This document shows, one piece after another, positions 1,636-46,220 of a stretch of DNA of 64,000 bases. The position numbers and the translations under genes were made by a program. Under the pieces are notes generated by a model. The model searched no databases, was not told where the DNA came from, and worked only from the letters and a program-made list of their open reading frames with translations. Each line of letters starts with the position of its first letter. The stretch's first letter is position 1. This stretch comes from an uncultured delta proteobacterium (lineage in GTDB: Bacteria > Myxococcota_A > Polyangia > Haliangiales > Haliangiaceae), in assembly GCA_963848295.1 (NCBI GenBank), contig CAWKDB010000010.1, positions 3,904,001 through 3,968,000 on the forward strand, given 5' to 3'.

Positions 1636-3168
1636 ATGGATCGAATGGTCGTATCGGGCCACGAAGTCGACCCCGCGATCGGCGCGTTGCTCGGCGAGAC
1701 CACGACGGAGATCGATGTCGCCCGCAAGAACCGGGTGTTCTGTAATCGCAATCTCCGGATGGACTCGATCGAGATGATCGGGTTCGACATGGATTACACG
1801 CTCGCGCTGTACCACCAGGACAAGCTCGAGCAGCTGTCGATCGCGCTGACCCTCCAGAAGATGGTCGCGAACCACGGCTATCCGGAAGCGATCCGGGGCC
1901 TCGTCTACGACTCGCGTTGGGCGATCCGCGGCCTGATGGTCGATCGCGAGCTCGGCAACGTGTTCAAGATGGACCGCCACGCGCACGTCGGCCGCTGCTA
2001 CCACGGGTTGCGCGAGCTCGATCCCGAAGAGCGCAAGCACATCTATCGCCACGAGAAGATCAACCTGTCGGCGGATCGCTTCGAGTGGATCGACACGCTG
2101 TTCGGCCTGCCCGAGGCGGTGATGTACACGACGCTCGTCGATTGGTACGACCGCCAAGGCGGGACTGCCAACTACGACAAGCTGTTCGGCGATATCCGCC
2201 GTTCGATCGACGAGGCGCACCGCGACGACACGCTGAAGTCGGTGATCAAGGCGGACCTCGCGGCGTTCATCGTCAAGGATCCGTTGCTCGGCGAGACGCT
2301 TCACAAGTTCCGCAGCTCGGGCAAGAAGCTGTTCGTGCTCACGAACTCGGCATGGGACTACACGAGCGTCGTGATGAGCTACTTGCTCGACGGCGAGCGC
2401 AAGGCCTACCCGTCGTGGCGCAACTACTTCGACATCGTGATCGTCGGCGGCGCGAAGCCGGCGTTCTTCAACGAGCAGCGGCCGTTCGTCGTGATCGATC
2501 CGGTGACCGGCGCGCCTCCCGAGCCGAACGGCCACAACGGAGAGATCAAGCACCTGTCGCGCGACAAGGTCTATCAAGGCGGAAATGTCGTCGCGTTCGA
2601 GCAGATGACCGGCCTCAGGGGCGAGCAGGTGCTCTACATCGGCGATCACATCTACGGCGACATCCTGCGCCTGCGGAAGCAGCACATGTGGCGCACCGCG
2701 ATGGTGCTGCAAGAGCTCGAGCGCGAGATGTCGGTCAGCGATCGGCTCGAAGCGCAGATCGAGGACCTCGCGTTGCTCGATCGCCGTCATCGCAACCTCG
2801 AGTCCGAGATCGACTACCAGACCCTGCGGCTCAAGAAGTTGCAGCGCCTGCTCGACGAGCCGACGACGACGCCGGCGCTGCACGTTCGGCTCGACGACGA
2901 GCGCAAGCAGACGCGCGATAGCCTCGAGTCGCTGCGGGATCGCGCGCAGATGATGGACGTCGAGGTCGACTCGCTCGAGATCCGGATCGATCGCGCGTAC
3001 AACCCGCACTGGGGCAGCTGCCTGCGCGAGGGCAACGAGAACTCGCGGTTCGGCGAGCAGGTCAACGACTACGCCGATCTCTACACGTCGCGCGTGTCGA
3101 ACTTCAGCCCGTACTCGCCGCTGCGGTACTTCCGCGCGCCGCGCCGGCCGATGCCACACGAGATCTAG
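1636..3168 (+). CDS. HAD-IG family (cN-II-like IMP/GMP) 5'-nucleotidase
   Basis: GFDMDYTLA motif [26 protein letters not shown]; start uncertain (1597/1636/1645). Confidence 0.92.
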
Positions 3169-3183
3169 ATCGGCGCCTGATTC

Positions 3184-5037
3184 TCACAACGGGCGGATCA
3201 CCGAGATCTCACCGCGCGTCCCGCCGAGCACGTCAAGCCGCTCGGGGACGGTGGAGTAGCCCGACGGCGTGCCAACGACGAGGTCGTCGCCGCCGGGGCC
3301 GTCGATCAACGCACCGACGAATTCGACGAGGATCGGCATCCCGAGCGTGTCGCTGGCCGGATTCGTCAGCACCTGCGTCACGCCGGTGTCGAGGCCGGCG
3401 GAGGTGCCGACGTGGACCTCGGCGACGCTCGGCGAGCCGTCGCAATGATGCACACCCGTGCCGGTGCCATCGTGCACGCCGTCGATCTCGAGCAACACGT
3501 CGTCGAAGCCATCGCCGTCGAGGTCACCGCCGCCGATCAGCCAGCCTTGGCGCGGAAAGTTGTCGTACCCAGGCCCGTCGCCGTTCGAGCAACCGGGAAC
3601 GACGTCGACCGGCAGCGTCCATGGCGCGGCTACGCGCAATGTGCTGCTGCCGTACGCGATCACGATCTGCGCGGGCTGGATCCCCTGGAGGTATCCGCCG
3701 CCCTCGAGGTACGTAAACGTGTAGCCCGACGCGCGGAAGCTCCCTACATCGGCGAGGCCGTCGCCGTCGACGTCACCGAGCCCGACGACCTGATCGGTGA
3801 AAGGCAGTCGCGCGATCGTGCGCTGGTACGGATTCGTGCGAGCGCCGGCGAACACGTCGGCGTGGTGGAGCTGGCCGCTGACGACTCGGTCGACCGGATC
3901 GAGCGACTGGACCTCGAGCGCGAGATCGGGGAAGCCATCGCCATCGACATCGCCGACCGGTACGAGCACGTTGCCGGCAGCGGGCGAGAACGGTTGTTCG
4001 TCGTCGGGAACGGCAAACTGGACCACCTCGGGTGCGCCGACCCCGCTCGGACTGCCGTGCAGGATGTCGAGCTCGATGCCGGTGAAGTACGCGATCGTGC
4101 CGCCTTCGTCACCGACCGTAACTCGCGGAGGCAGGGTCAGCTGCACGCCGAGATCGGCGAAGCCATCACCGTCGACGTCGCCGAGCGAGAGCAAGCCGAC
4201 AAGCGTCTCGCCGGTCGGGATCGTGAAAGCGACCGTCTGGACGAGCTGGAGGTTGCTGTCGAGATCGAGCTGATAGCGCATCAGGTTGATCGGGTTGACC
4301 CCGAGCTGCTGCACGGTGACAACCTCGTCGCGGCCGTCGCCGTCGAGATCGAGCACCGGCGTCGCGTACGTGCCGAACGCGTAGTCGGAACCTTCGACAC
4401 TGGCCGTCTTGCCGCTCGCGAGCTCGAGCTCGAGGACTTGCGCCGACGAGTACTGCGACGCCGGCTCGACGCGGAGGATGTCTACCCTGCCATCGCGATC
4501 GAAGTCCGGCTCGAGGCCGAGCGGCTGGATCGTCGGCGCCGCGCCGCCGTTCGAGAAGATCACGCGCGTGGTCGTGTGGTCCGCGCCGATCACTTCGTGA
4601 CCGTCCGGCTGTTGCGAGCGGCCATAGCCGCGCACGAAGTACGCGCCGCGCACGAGCGGGTACGGGAGCGGCGCGCCGGCGGTACCCGTTAGCAGCGCGG
4701 TGACCTCCGAGCACTCGAGGTCGCGGCAGATCTTGACGAGGCTGTCGCTGGCCGCAGGCGACGAGGTCCACGCGACGACCGGGAGGCCCGACGTGCGCGC
4801 GCCCGAGATTGGCGATTGCAGGGTCGGAGCGCCGGGCTCCGCGATGCAGGTCTCGACCACGGTGTCGCACACCGTGCCGACGTCGCATCCGCCAGGGCAT
4901 GTGCGGTTGCGGTCCGAGTCCGGATCGCTGTCGGCGCCGTCGGCCTTGCCGCCGCTGGGCGGTAGCTGCGTCTGCGATGCGGCCGAGCAGCCGAGCGCGG
5001 ACAGCAGCACGGCGCAGATGAGGTCAGTTCGCTTCAT
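3184..5037 (-). CDS. FG-GAP/VCBS-repeat lipoprotein
   Basis: Lipobox ALGC, GGKADG motif, several GDVDGDG(F/L)xD calcium-binding repeats. Confidence 0.8.
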
Positions 5038-41696: not shown

Positions 41697-42065
41697 ATGC
41701 CGGGATTTCAGCGCCACGTGTTCGTCTGCATCAACGAGCGCCCGCCAGACCACCCGAAGGGCTCGTGCAAGGCGCGCTGCGGCGTCGAGGTCCGCGACCG
41801 GCTCAAGGCCGAGCTCGGTGCCCGCGGGATCGCGAAGCTCGTGCGCGCGAACAACGCCGGCTGCCTGGACCAGTGCGAGCACGGTGTCACGATGGTCGTT
41901 TACCCGGAGCAAGTCTGGTACGGGGCGGTCACGGTCGATGACATCCCCGAGATCGTCGACAAGCACGTCATCGGCGGCGAGGCGGTCGAACGTCTGATGA
42001 TCCCGGACCAACCGCACCTCGCGGATCGTCGAACGTTTCCGCCGCTGCGCACGGACAAGCCGTGA
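41697..42065 (+). CDS. Thioredoxin-like [2Fe-2S] ferredoxin
   Basis: HVFVCINER..HPKGSC, AGCLDQC, VVYPEQVWY. Confidence 0.92.
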   Translation: MPGFQRHVFVCINERPPDHPKGSCKARCGVEVRDRLKAELGARGIAKLVRANNAGCLDQCEHGVTMVVYPEQVWYGAVTVDDIPEIVDKHVIGGEAVERLMIPDQPHLADRRTFPPLRTDKP

Positions 42066-42670
42066 AGCTCGCACTCGCCTTGCTCGCAGCGGTCGCGGTC
42101 CCTGCGCGTGCGCACGCGGATGCGCCGTCGGCCAAGCCGGAAGTCGACGACGCCTCGGTCGAAGCGGCGAGCGAGGCGAACCTCGAATCGCAGGCGCCGC
42201 GTCGTGGCACGACGTTCTCGCTCGCGGTCGGCGGTGCGGCGACGTTCGGGCTCGGCATCGACGACTCGACCGGCCGCGGCGGGTCGCTGTCGTTGCGCGT
42301 CGGCCACGTCATGACCCCGCGTGCGCTGCTGACGTTCGAGCTGACCTCGTTCGCGACGCTGCACGAGATTGGGATGGCGCCGACGACGCTGTTGACGAAC
42401 ACCGACGTCAACCTGCTGGTCGGCGTCCAGCAGTACACCTCGCCATCGCTGTGGGTGCGCGCGGCCGGCGGCATCGGTGCATACAAGCTCGAGCGGGGCG
42501 CGATGCCGACGCTGCACTACGCGGGCCCGACGAGCGCGGTCGGCATCGGCGTCGACATCATCCGCCGCCACTATCTCGTCGTCGCGATCGAGGCCGTGAC
42601 GACCGGGATGCTCAACCGCGACGGCGTGCTGATCTCGAGCATGCTCGGCCTCGGCATCTCGTACTACTGA
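42062..42670 (+). CDS. Outer membrane beta-barrel-like protein
   Basis: Signal peptide, amphipathic strands, terminal GLGISYY. Confidence 0.65.
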   Translation: MKLALALLAAVAVPARAHADAPSAKPEVDDASVEAASEANLESQAPRRGTTFSLAVGGAATFGLGIDDSTGRGGSLSLRVGHVMTPRALLTFELTSFATLHEIGMAPTTLLTNTDVNLLVGVQQYTSPSLWVRAAGGIGAYKLERGAMPTLHYAGPTSAVGIGVDIIRRHYLVVAIEAVTTGMLNRDGVLISSMLGLGISYY

Positions 42671-42844
42671 GTTGATCGCGAACGCGCGCGCTGGCTGCGC
42701 TGTCACAGGGTCCTGCGCGCGGCGCGCGACCGGCGGTGCGGGACCATGGGCGGTGCAACACGTCTTGATACGCCGACGCGTGATGGTCGACTTGGAAGTT
42801 ACGCGCTTGGACCTGTGCAGCTCCGCCTGTCGCGGGGTGGACCC

Positions 42845-42869
42845 GACCGGAGGTTCTTTCGTCCGGCCG
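42845..42869. repeat. Hairpin at 3' side of RAYT-like gene, inverted relative to 44011-44033
   Basis: Reverse complement CGGCCGGAC-GAAAGA-ACCTCCGGTC versus CGGCCGGAC-AATT-ACCTCCGGTT. Confidence 0.65.
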
Positions 42870-43028
42870 TCGGCGAACCGGCGAGCGAATCTCGCGGGTC
42901 GCGCGCCCGCGATGACGCTCGGGCCTACCCGGCGCAACCGACGCCGCCACGGTTGGCCATGCAGCGGCGACGCACGACGGTCGGTCGAGCGTTGATAGCG
43001 GCGTCAAACTCGGCGGTGGTGGAGTCGC

Positions 43029-43922
43029 TCAGAGCGGGACGGGTTCCGTGGCAACGCCGGCGAACCGCGAGAGCCAATAGGTGCCGGATGGAAACAGGGA
43101 GGCGACTCGCGCCCGCCAGACCGCGAGCGCGAACCGGTACGCGGCAAGGAACGAGCGGTACTTGCCGAGCGCGTCAATGCGCGCCTCGATTTGTCCCGCG
43201 AAGCGCGGACGTAGGTTGCGCCGGGGCGCGAGGGTGGTGGGCGCCTCGTCCCAGCGTTGCTCCAGGATTTGGCGGCGCCCGCAAACCGACGTACCGGTCT
43301 CACGCCGCAGCTCGGCAACCTCGCGCTCGACGCGCTCGACGCCCGCGCGTACCTCGGCGATGAACGCGTCGGCCGGGCCGAGCTCGGCAGGAATCGTCAT
43401 GCGGAGCTCGATCTCGTCGGGCAGCGTACCCGCGTCGCGAAAAAAGTGCCGAGGTCGCGTTGCCCGCAGCGCCCGTCCCGACAGGAGGTTCGTATACGTG
43501 TTCACGCCGGGCCAATGGTGGACGCGCTCGACGAGCCGATCTTTGACCGGATTGGTGACGCCATAGACGACTTTGGCGATCACGGTCTCGCGATCGAGGA
43601 GCCGGGTCACGCATGGCTCCTCCGCGGCCCAGAAGTTCTCCCAGCGTCCGCGCAGCGCATTCTGGCTGCGAGCGACCAGGCTATGAAAGTACGTGATGAA
43701 CTCGGGACATCGACCGTCGCGGTCGTAGATCGTGGTGTGGTGGTGATTCGACTCGGCGAGTGTATGGACCACGTCCATCCCGCAGCGTTGCGCGGCGACC
43801 GCGAGGCAGTAGGCATACGCGTTGTTCGTCGCGGCGTCGGGCCGCAGCAAGAACCACCGGTTCGCACACCGTCGAGTGAGCAAGTAGAACTGGTTGCGCA
43901 GGACTTGGCGAGGTCGCGTCAC
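43029..43922 (-). CDS. HUH/Y1 transposase, REP-associated tyrosine transposase (RAYT)-like
   Basis: YLLTRRC..FLLRPD, SNHHH (HUH), NFW, Y..TNPVK catalytic Tyr motif, WPG. Confidence 0.85.
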   Translation of the reverse strand: MTRPRQVLRNQFYLLTRRCANRWFLLRPDAATNNAYAYCLAVAAQRCGMDVVHTLAESNHHHTTIYDRDGRCPEFITYFHSLVARSQNALRGRWENFWAAEEPCVTRLLDRETVIAKVVYGVTNPVKDRLVERVHHWPGVNTYTNLLSGRALRATRPRHFFRDAGTLPDEIELRMTIPAELGPADAFIAEVRAGVERVEREVAELRRETGTSVCGRRQILEQRWDEAPTTLAPRRNLRPRFAGQIEARIDALGKYRSFLAAYRFALAVWRARVASLFPSGTYWLSRFAGVATEPVPL

Positions 43923-44010
43923 ACGCCAGACGTTCGCAAGAACTGCACCATCCGAACCCCGTGATTCTTCCTGAGCGTTTGTCCGAGCTGTCCGAATCTT
44001 GGCCGAGATC

Positions 44011-44325
44011 CGGCCGGACAATTACCTCCGGTTCATCTCGCTCAGGTCTCGTCTCGCTCAGGTCTCACCTCGCGGCAATTACTCCGGGCCGGTCTCGCTC
44101 GCCCGGCTCCTCGCCGCGGTCCAATTTACCAACGGTCCGGCCTCGGGGCAATTACCTCCGGTCCGGCCTCGCCCCCAATTACCTCCGGTCCGGCCTCGCC
44201 CCCGCCGGCAATTACCCCCGGTCCGGCCTCGGGCCTCGCCCCGCCGGGCAATTACCTCCGGTCCGGCCTCGCCCGCCCGATCCCCAACGGTCCGGCCTCG
44301 GGGCAATTACCTCCGGTCCGGTCCG
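44011..44325. repeat. Irregular array of about 9 copies of CAATTACCTCCGGTCCGGCCTCG
   Basis: Exact at 44149, 44176, 44249; 1 mismatch at 44209; partial or degenerate at 44019, 44076, 44122, 44284, 44304. Confidence 0.93.
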
Positions 44326-44333
44326 ATCCCCTG

Positions 44334-44407
44334 AGCGCGCGCAGCCGCGAGGGCGCAACGTCGCGATAGCGCGCGCAGCCGCGAGGGCGCAACGTCGCGA
44401 TAGCGCG
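44334..44407. repeat. Perfect 34-bp tandem duplication
   Basis: AGCGCGCGCAGCCGCGAGGGCGCAACGTCGCGAT at 44334 and 44368, then AGCGCG. Confidence 0.9.
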
Positions 44408-44417
44408 ATGCTCGGCG

Positions 44418-46220
44418 CTACAGATCGCCCGGCGTGCCGAGGCGGAAGTCGACGATCTCGCTGTCGACGTTCGCGGTGCCGACCTCGTCGTTCGCGAGGT
44501 TGTCGCCAGCTTGCGCGGACAGGTGTGCGCCCGAGACCGTGTGGATCTCGTAGCGTCCAGTCGAGTCCGTCTCCGCGGTCACCGGCGGCGTGGTCCCCTC
44601 GACCGTCGCGGTCACCGTCGCGCCGGCGATCGGCCGACCGTCTGCGTCGGAGACGACGCCGCTCACGGACTTCCTGTGGCGCGGGCCGACCCCGAGCTCG
44701 ATCTGCGCAGCCGCACCGGCGGGCACCGTGACTTGCACCGGCAGCACGCGGTCGCGCCAGCGCGTCAGCATCGTCAGATCGCACGCCGGGACGTCGTCGA
44801 TCGTGAAGCGCCCGCCGGTCACCGTCACGAGCCGCGGCTCGTGCGACAGCGGGACGCCTCCGCACGACATCAACACCGCGAGGAAGCTGCCTTCGGCGAG
44901 CTCGCTCGTCGTGCCTTCGATCCGGCCGGTACCGGACAACACGAGCCGCGTGTCTTTCGAGGGCGACATCACGGTTTGCTCCGCGATGCCGCGGCTGCCG
45001 GCTTGGACGCGAACGCTGTATTCGCCCGGCACCATGTCGTAGATGTGCCAGCGGCCCTGCTCGTCGGCGCGCTCTTGTTGGCCGAACGCGCCGGCCGCGT
45101 TCGTGGTCGGCAAGATATCGAGATACGCGAGCGGCACCGGATCGCCGTTCGCGTCGACGACGACGCCCGACATCGTCGGCTCGCGCGCCGGAATCTGGAA
45201 CACGACATCGGTGAACCGCGCGCCCGACTGACACGTGAACGTGCGCGGCTGCGACGGCGGTGACTTCCACGGCCACGCGCGCAACGCGACCTCGCCTTCG
45301 ATCGGCATCGACCAGTGGAACGCGCCGCCGTGCTCGATCCTGCCCGACGGGTTGAACCCGCCCTCGATCTGCATCTCGATCGCGCCGTCGGGTGCGGGCT
45401 TGCCCTCGGCATCGACGACGCGCCCGGTGACGATACAACCCGCCGCGAGCGTGACGTTGCTCGTGACGCTCTCGCCCGCGTTGACGTGGAACACCGCGCC
45501 GCGACTCGTCGTGAACCGCGGTTCGCTCGCTTCGACGAGGTAGCGACCCTCGGCAACGCGCAGCGAGAACCGCCCGTCCGCGTCGCTCTCGGTGACGTCG
45601 GTGCCCAGCGCCGGCCGGAGCAGGCCTCCGCGGGCACGGACCGCCGCGCCCGAGATCGGCCGATTCTGCTCGTCGGTCACGCGTCCTTCGATCTTCGCGC
45701 CGCGCACGACGAGCAATTCGACGTGACCGACGTCCGCATTCGCCACGACGCGCGGCATCAGCGCTTCATCGGGCAGCCCCGCGATGTCGAGGCGCGGAGT
45801 AAAATCGTTGCGCACGCGATCGCGTGGTCCGACGGTGAGCACCGTATCGTCGCGCACGAACAGCCGGTACTCTCCGCGCGCGACCTCGACGTGGAACGTC
45901 CCGTCGGCGCCGGCCGTGATCGATTCGTCGCCGAGCGCGCTGCGCACGACGATCTCGACGTTACCGACCGGAGTCGCCGTCGCCGTGTCGAGCACGGTGC
46001 CCGAGATCGTGACGGTGCCAGACTCGTGCGGGAAGGCGATCGGCCCGCGCACCTTCGCACGGCGAAGCGCGTCCGCGAGATCGGGCACGATGCCGGTCCG
46101 CGCGTTCGGGTCGTGGCGCGCCTCCGCGGCCTGGTCGTGGCCGCCACCGCGCAGGACGAGCCACAGCGCGATCACCAGCGCGAGGCACGCGGCGAGCGAT
46201 ACGCGGGACCTGCGCGTCAT
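44418..46220 (-). CDS. Membrane-anchored protein with repeated carboxypeptidase regulatory-like domains
   Basis: Repeated G.V.D..G.P(I/V).GA.V and TD.DGRF motifs. Confidence 0.85.
   Translation of the reverse strand: MTRRSRVSLAACLALVIALWLVLRGGGHDQAAEARHDPNARTGIVPDLADALRRAKVRGPIAFPHESGTVTISGTVLDTATATPVGNVEIVVRSALGDESITAGADGTFHVEVARGEYRLFVRDDTVLTVGPRDRVRNDFTPRLDIAGLPDEALMPRVVANADVGHVELLVVRGAKIEGRVTDEQNRPISGAAVRARGGLLRPALGTDVTESDADGRFSLRVAEGRYLVEASEPRFTTSRGAVFHVNAGESVTSNVTLAAGCIVTGRVVDAEGKPAPDGAIEMQIEGGFNPSGRIEHGGAFHWSMPIEGEVALRAWPWKSPPSQPRTFTCQSGARFTDVVFQIPAREPTMSGVVVDANGDPVPLAYLDILPTTNAAGAFGQQERADEQGRWHIYDMVPGEYSVRVQAGSRGIAEQTVMSPSKDTRLVLSGTGRIEGTTSELAEGSFLAVLMSCGGVPLSHEPRLVTVTGGRFTIDDVPACDLTMLTRWRDRVLPVQVTVPAGAAAQIELGVGPRHRKSVSGVVSDADGRPIAGATVTATVEGTTPPVTAETDSTGRYEIHTVSGAHLSAQAGDNLANDEVGTANVDSEIVDFRLGTPGDL

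Follow-up and report, generated by a model that had tools for sequence, protein, structure and literature searches.

The tandem repeats beside a transposase gene of an uncultured delta proteobacterium are tentatively explained here as nested copies of the tip of a transposon, made in place by its own enzyme through a single nick about 14 nt past a terminal motif, recopying and rejoining. We give this reading slightly less than an even chance; the readings in which the enzyme triggers the duplications are, taken together, very probable. The window, meaning the whole stretch of DNA that was analysed, covers 64,000 nucleotides of contig CAWKDB010000010.1 (GenBank assembly GCA_963848295.1, positions 3,904,001 to 3,968,000). 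The locus within it is one copy of a multi-copy mobile element of soil myxobacteria, common in Kofleriaceae-type Myxococcota. The element extends from about 42835 to 44332 (~1.5 kb), and the genome (G000) holds four full copies and one partial copy, with proteins 84-91% identical to the window protein.

The initial annotation had placed a Y1/HUH gene at 43029-43922, and this open reading frame is present on the minus strand (43922-43029) with its catalytic residues. It encodes 297 aa from a GTG and carries the NHHH and Y-x-x-x-NP motifs (H60-H61-H62, W94/W98 and Y120-x3-N124-P125), as well as a C-terminal extension of ~90 aa that lacks a Pfam match. H60, H62, W98, Y120, N124 and P125 are invariant in 58/58 aligned homologues, and W94 is nearly invariant. 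For the predicted structure (pLDDT 90.2), the best fold match was E. coli TnpA_REP (4ER8; Z 14.6, rmsd 2.8 Å, 155 aligned residues), followed by IS608 TnpA (2VHG; Z 8.9); matches to Thg1 and cytochrome bc1 were set aside as common-fold or weak. The motif and fold features of TnpA_Y1 class 2 (RAYT-like; Quentin et al. 2018) were all found, namely HUH, a conserved W, Y-x-x-x-NP and a TnpA_REP core, the Y-x-x-x-NP signature being given for class 2 in the accessible text of that paper (PMC6006769). By motif and predicted fold, the protein is a RAYT-like Y1/HUH enzyme of class 2. Judged from rough dN/dS values of 0.12-0.21 in three paralog pairs, the transposase gene is under purifying selection.

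A Pfam search with the window protein gave no match, the NF047646 profile scored 27.7 bits against a cut-off of 80, and Pfam Y1_Tnp was reached at E<=0.01 by 1/58 aligned homologues. A PDB sequence search with the protein returned nothing useful. The family comprises 1932 proteins at E<=1e-10 and 998 clusters (50% identity) at E<=1e-30. It is present in 29/41 related genomes and, at E<=1e-30, in 24/151 genomes of the phylum, with up to 31 matches per genome (these are matches, not copy numbers), and six copies that are 90-98% identical were found in genome G185. The best 79 genome loci are mostly from assemblies titled Kofleriaceae, Haliangiales and Myxococcales. An Atlas search yielded only transposase or hypothetical clusters, mostly of Myxococcota, and the plasmid and phage collections contained no match to the family.

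Positions at the ends of the element are counted outward from the gene, starting at the first G of the motif GG. The downstream end (42835..42858, minus strand) holds one copy of the terminal motif, with GG at 42848-42847 and a tail to +13. The innermost upstream motif (44020..44036, plus strand; GG at 44030-44031) is inverted relative to it and is followed by an array of nested upstream-end copies (44037..44331, plus strand), in which the last GG lies at 44315 and the tail reaches +16. About eight further copies had been reported at the start, and eight were found between 44076 and 44331, of which five are nearly perfect and the remaining three degenerate or partial. The 38-bp duplication reported with them is also real (44129-44166 = 44284-44321). 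Two perfect tandem duplications lie on the plus strand: one of 27 nt (44149..44203) with its junction at +16/+17 of the motif GG, and one of 7 nt (44225..44238) with a blunt junction at +12. Upstream of the start codon lies a subterminal GTCCG/CGGAC cluster (43981..44019, unstranded), the source of the 5' arm of a putative upstream hairpin. Within 160 nt, at least one GTCCG occurs in 161/183 and at least one CGGAC in 154/183 upstream flanks of the family, as raw counts. A variant of a conserved box, with the family form GCGGCGTG, was matched by eye at 42957..42972 on the minus strand, ~50-60 nt after the stop codon; the box points outward in 42/78 downstream flanks versus 3 inward.

The element was inserted into a MITE-like dispersed repeat of ~170 bp, the main part of which lies at 42676..42834 and a terminal part of the same family at 44333..44407, the latter with its own 34-bp tandem duplication (44334-44401). 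This repeat occupies 15 intervals (2569 bp in total) in the genome. The window element sits inside one repeat copy, paralog C abuts another, and L159, a locus of another data set whose protein is 92% identical, has pieces of the repeat at both ends; these three cases suggest a target preference. The convergent neighbours are a gene for a 202-aa protein without a Pfam match (42062-42670, plus strand) and one for 600 aa with several carboxypeptidase regulatory-like domains according to Pfam (44418-46220, minus strand).

Both ends of the element carry an outward-pointing terminal motif with the consensus AAYYAACCYCGGTSSGG, which contains no GTAG. It was found outward at 125/161 training flanks, compared to 5 inward and 1 in shuffled sequence, and at 99/114 independent flanks of the metagenome set, on which it had not been trained, compared to 5 inward. 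More distant copies bear it less often (28/79 outward versus 3). The motif is present at both ends in 48/78 loci, and the two ends of a locus are more alike (14.2 of 22 identical) than ends of different loci (12.4). In a scan of the genome, all 16 matches to AATTACCTCCGG were tied to these genes, 14 at element ends and the others at two end remnants, and 20/37 matches to ACCTCCGGTC lay inside element loci with the remainder scattered singly. These distributions rule out REP-like dispersal of the motif. The proposal of a poorly described non-GTAG RAYT-like group holds up. Gene-less remnants of element ends were seen on C10 of this genome (547.4 kb, 548.3 kb and 552.4 kb) and at C2:1138392, and the remnant at 547.4 kb is preceded by a short piece of the gene's 3' part. 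Three loci apparently from an unpublished genome (G010) enter the counts for array frequency, the box, motif training and the window array; they were left out of the statistics on junctions, the boundary and validation, and no conclusion rests on them.

A hairpin of the form CCGGA-loop-TCCGG had been described on each side of the gene. The sequences are there, at 42847-42866 and 44014-44031, and they are inverted, but they do not fold beyond shuffled controls (z of +0.73, +0.41, -1.82 and -2.09 for the fold stability of the window palindromes). Across the family, a 5-bp complementary arm exists at only 5/272 ends and the folding energy equals that of shuffles; hairpin ends were rejected for these reasons. 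What is conserved at the ends is a terminal motif, linear and inverted, and hairpin recognition is not supported.

The limits of the element were read from pairs of copies that are at least 90% identical and lie at different sites. After six same-site or same-locus pairs were dropped from the 28 found, 17 of the 22 remaining pairs diverged at +9..+14 and the rest at +3, +7, +17, +17 and +18. The host repeat of the window begins at +14 at the downstream end and at +18 at the upstream end. Compared in this way, the element-host boundary is at about +12 to +15, and the last few tail bases turn over rapidly. Target-site duplication was sought in 87 loci with both ends, and the lengths of direct repeats equalled those in shuffled pairings. 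An empty site was also sought through shared host flanks, which gave same-site orthologues and strain pairs and no clean empty site. In L037, L029 and L049 (about 3065-3450), from three genomes, a motif-like downstream end runs straight into the 3' end of a tmRNA gene, and about 33 nt of that tmRNA end recur at the downstream end of L215, which lies at another site.

Examined for motifs, the flanks of homologous loci turned out to carry cognate ends and arrays as well. An 11-mer present at least three times occurred in 48/144 near flanks versus 4/123 far flanks. Since this was true of only 70/3000 random 450-nt windows of the genome, and since AATTACCTCCGG is confined to ends and remnants, the window array is not attributed to chance. 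Arrays were also found in 29/91 flanks of the second (metagenome) set and were rarer in distant members (6/45 flanks). Overall, about one third of ends have an array and two thirds do not. In the 65 loci with both flanks long enough, the array was upstream only in 15, downstream only in 8, at both ends in 9 and absent in 33. The one-sided polarity noted initially is peculiar to the window copy: arrays flank both sides of two paralogs (C10:3190297 and C10:3663521). A second multi-copy Y1_Tnp family in this genome has nine matches (C10 261800, 1439500, 3040575, 3445968, 3657655, 3806926 and 4550601; C2 330154 and 1374309), and arrays were absent at the 8 of these loci that were covered. Several of these loci share a different upstream repeat of about 150 bp.

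Could the arrays have been produced by assembly? A public run, possibly of the source sample, provided two unitigs that agree with 43954-44106 and 44208-44363 at every position; each covers part of the window array, and none of the listed unitigs spans the whole of it. Flank swaps among the near-identical copies L191, L210 and L213 may be chimeric and would point the same way as the lack of a spanning contig. However, the exact unitig matches, together with a junction rule (described below) that recurs in two separate collections and on a contig of another run, make an artefact extremely improbable.

Copies of earlier same-strand sequence make up 74% of array bases, and the other 26% are not copied. 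Foreign stretches of at least 22 nt numbered 51, in 38/157 multi-copy flanks, and 35 of the 51 lay just after the innermost copy. One trapped piece was traced within this genome (G000:C10:3664656-3664690 = G000:C4:310807-310841, 35/35 nt). It lies between the first and second copies of the downstream end of paralog C, is partly recopied into later units, and corresponds to two thirds, on the right side, of a distant palindrome with a long stem. CRISPR-like spacer capture was considered and rejected, since this single 35-nt piece was the only one traceable when sources were sought in this genome and the foreign stretches are irregular and mostly come after the innermost copy. Two other repeat types were seen in passing: the upstream flanks of L267-L270 (G185) have changed-motif arrays adjoining CCGAGA-type hexamer microsatellite tracts, and G000:C11:700850-701120 holds five perfect 57-bp tandem repeats unrelated to the element motif.

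Each array unit repeats the tip of the element over 6-683 nt; the start varies from unit to unit, and the junction mostly lies 12-17 nt past the motif. The initial annotation had described the units as loop plus 3' arm, i.e. half-hairpins, separated by C/G-rich linkers. Neither description survives: the fixed point is ~14 nt past the motif and not the hairpin axis, and most of the linker sequence belongs to the unit, as its distal tip (+12 to +16). Perfect duplications with two copies numbered 149 within 40 nt of a motif; the junction is compatible with +12..+17 in 115 of them (69% of the weight, compared to 15% if junctions were uniform) and lies outside in the other 34. The second set gave 41/49 compatible junctions. 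A contig of another run follows the same rule, jumping back after +12 plus one base. The junction position coincides with the element-host boundary. Among 78 longer-range copies, 53 start at +12..+17, and four of these 53 derive from inside the gene (259, 296, 412 and 683 nt). Unit starts are most frequent at -2..+1 and +3..+5, at the two CGG-like triplets; a single 6-nt window accounts for 43% of them, and the distribution tails off to -75.

Independently of the enzyme, a GC-rich repeat could also expand through ordinary replication slippage or unequal recombination; as the source of the arrays, this is disfavoured and very improbable. Such processes will act once an array exists, and the multi-copy runs and the 34/149 junctions outside the window of +12..+17 fit them. 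On the other hand, 119 single-motif ends had 21 junctions in +12..+17 versus 60 over the other 48 windows, with a maximum of 4 in any of these, which is about a 17-fold excess in one 6-nt window. The distal copy shares at least 30 nt with an inner copy in 1/58 arrays and the proximal copy shares at least 22 nt upstream in 12/58, and arrays are absent beside the 8 covered loci of the other Y1 family; both results speak against slippage.

Units come and go in place between otherwise identical strains, and assembly collapse could explain part of this. Over the flanks compared, L198 and L201 are identical apart from a unit of 13 nt at one end and a unit of 44 nt at the opposite end; the 44-nt unit of L201 contains the only substitution, located in its inner copy. 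L196 and L217 differ in similar fashion. In paralogs C and D, the genes are ~99% identical over most of their length and arrays are found only in C. Identity between C and D is 97-100% in the first 800 nt of the gene and 92% for the whole element, a contrast that suggests recombination or gene conversion between copies. L055 and L074 hold the element at an orthologous site in genomes about 76% identical, the upstream end being apparently lost in both, and this comparison indicates long residence of some copies. When 14 arrays were compared for which copy is derived, the outer copy was more derived in 8 and the inner copy in 5; decay of the inner versus the outer copy was seen in 16 versus 11 of 44.

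Another possible explanation is that the arrays are selected structures of a domesticated gene, as in REPtrons, and serve as decoy binding sites, spare ends or a record of earlier sites. The purifying selection on the gene, the long residence at one site in L055 and L074 and the host DNA trapped in an array are in keeping with this. We consider it very improbable, since two thirds of ends have no array and the units are irregular and differ between identical strains. Also, the element is multi-copy and recently moved, and its motif is not spread through the genome.

In the single-nick model that we tentatively favour, the enzyme would bind the motif and cut at a set distance, as with a ruler, and not at a set sequence. 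The nick would fall on the strand reading into the element, and the tyrosine would stay on the element's 5' end. HUH cleavage is described in the accessible text of PMC8266576 as yielding a 5'-phosphotyrosine, with the 3'-OH able either to serve as a primer for synthesis or to resolve the link. The host 3'-OH would prime strand-displacement synthesis inward by a host polymerase, synthesis would halt early, after 6 to several hundred nt, and the new 3'-OH would attack the phosphotyrosine. After the next replication, one daughter would gain one extra copy of the tip. Each end would thereby act much as a rolling-circle origin does, and the arrays would result from initiations that aborted, with no benefit to the host implied. 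Nick-primed strand-displacement copying is suggested by the pattern of junctions and sizes, and imprecise joining combined with a ruler cut would explain both the turnover of tail bases and the host DNA trapped between copies.

The single-nick model is supported by the fold and catalytic residues, the dN/dS values, the outward motif and the occurrence of arrays at near flanks. It is further supported by junctions fixed at +12..+17, including those of copies from inside the gene, by the agreement of the junction with the element-host boundary and the small overlap there, and by the differences between L198 and L201 and between the arrays of C and D. Several results weaken it: the 51 foreign stretches and the 26% of non-copied bases, which simple recopying does not produce, the off-window junctions, the rarity of arrays in distant members, the search for an empty site that yielded none, the 8 versus 5 split between outer and inner derived copies, the 16 versus 11 split in decay, and the position of the L201 substitution in the inner copy. 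Read from the sequences, the arrays do look like the scars of repeated cut-and-rejoin events that the initial annotation proposed.

The peaks of unit starts at CGG-like triplets could mean a second preferred cut, which would count against a single nick. If amplification took two nicks, or circles re-inserted, as proposed for E. coli BIMEs, the first nick would fall on the outward-reading strand inside or upstream of the motif, its 3'-OH would be extended through the end, and the new strand would then be nicked at about +14, this second nick attacking the first phosphotyrosine. This route has a published BIME model behind it (PMC3333891, accessible parts including the Fig. 7 legend) and an enzyme of the same fold in TnpA_REP. 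Besides the start peaks, the L201 substitution in the inner copy fits it, and the trapped host pieces could have travelled on circles. According to the accessible text of PMC8266576 and PMC3333891, the cleavage sites of TnpA_REP are C|T or C|A, so a shared dinucleotide would be expected at every junction. Yet no dinucleotide is common to the junctions: out of 114 distinct ones, 35 are blunt and 38 share one base (73 with 0-1 nt overlap), and the blunt junctions have no consensus on either side. Starts also range continuously to 683 nt. We regard two nicks as unlikely.

The mean junction overlap, 1.49 nt versus 0.91 nt under the null, is somewhat above expectation and weakens the single-nick model as well. 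This mild excess of 1-4-nt microhomology could reflect host repair. In this explanation, the enzyme only breaks the end and the host makes the copies, either through a 3' end that slips back and primes again or through a staggered break that is filled in and end-joined. The 1-6 nt inserts held by 60/215 junctions, the rapid turnover of the last tail bases and the trapped foreign DNA are consistent with it. However, processive synthesis better accounts for exact copies that run over hundreds of bases and end at a single position, and 35/114 junctions are blunt, which leaves host repair rather unlikely.

A bolder reading seems possible, with the balance leaning against it. Here the element would have two equivalent inverted ends, each a rolling-circle origin with a sequence-independent ruler of ~14 nt beyond a 17-nt linear motif. 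A small Y1 enzyme would write tandem duplications of 6 to about 700 nt without homology and would move by joining element 5' ends to targets, unlike peel-and-paste or ori/ter rolling circle transposition. Models for the amplification of repeats by RAYT-type enzymes date back to 2011, but REP/BIME arrays make it hard to discern what a single event has left in the genome. The more than 150 perfect single events with one fixed and one variable end predict a cut site at +12 to +17 that is independent of sequence, and the mechanism thereby becomes directly testable with oligonucleotides. They offer a first substrate and mechanism to test for TIR-flanked Y1 transposases, in a large family that Pfam nearly misses (1/58). 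A small enzyme making site-anchored tandem duplications could also be a useful tool.

The element was compared to known systems on the basis of the accessible parts of the papers cited here and of PMC5581495. No description of the family's ends or arrays was found in the literature covered, most subscription papers lying outside this coverage. Six myxobacterial names had no match in two supplement files of PMC6006769, and the accessible text of PMC3733652 contains no myxobacterial name, although its Fig. 9 and alignment supplement could list such genes. The TIRtrons and their TIRYT genes (Di Nocera et al. 2013, PMC3733652) resemble the element in their RAYT-like Y1 gene, their terminal inverted repeats that are not GTAG REPs, the Y-x-x-x-NP motif and the C-terminal extension; in the classification of Quentin et al. 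2018 (PMC6006769), TIRYT probably corresponds to subclass 2.1. By its sequence features, the element falls within the broad TIRtron definition. However, its end is AAYYAACCYCGGTSSGG and not GGGGWSAS, the TIRtron motif given for most, not all, TIRs in the accessible text. The 20 TIRYT of subclass 2.1 are described there as having a C-terminal HTH, whereas no HTH/Bac_DnaA_C match from Pfam was found in 58 members here; the structural comparison barely reached residues beyond about 210. Also, the element ends are not a dispersed repeat family, and nested end duplications with a fixed junction are absent from the TIRtron descriptions in the parts accessible.

REPtrons, i.e. RAYTs with REP-BIME sequences (E. 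coli TnpA_REP, 4ER8; PMC3333891, PMC8266576 and PMC3116915, accessible text), share the fold, and tandem amplification near the gene has been proposed for them through nicking, extension and strand transfer. The element differs in having no GTAG, no conserved hairpin and no genome-wide spread. Its units are direct, nested and unequal, in contrast to REP/iREP pairs of fixed period, and tandem REPIN and REP clusters are evenly spaced as described in the accessible text of PMC3116915. Its junctions lack C|T or C|A, and its gene moves with its ends; a REPtron gene does not duplicate as a unit, and this gene does, in four full copies and one partial copy here and six copies in G185. IS200/IS605 TnpA (IS608, ISDra2) has in common with the element the Y1 HUH fold, multiple copies and no detected target duplication. 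The protein of the element is twice as long (297 aa) and has Y-x-x-x-NP in place of Y-x-x-x-Q, its ends are inverted and linear in contrast to hairpin ends processed on one strand, and no tnpB lies between them.

Under the proposed model, the element would be like the rolling-circle HUH transposons (IS91, ISCR, Helitrons and Replitrons; PMC10288648, accessible text) in nicking one end at a fixed place, copying to a variable extent and capturing flanks. It differs from them in that its enzyme is RAYT-type and not Rep-type, copies are added in place at either end, and its two ends are equivalent and inverted as opposed to a distinct origin and terminator. One-ended transposition is a property of IS91. 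The element is not a rolling-circle transposon, but it may function in a similar way. Compared to what is known, the new feature read from these loci is a TIR-flanked RAYT-like transposon whose ends appear to record single duplication events with a predictable cut position, as a family-wide feature.
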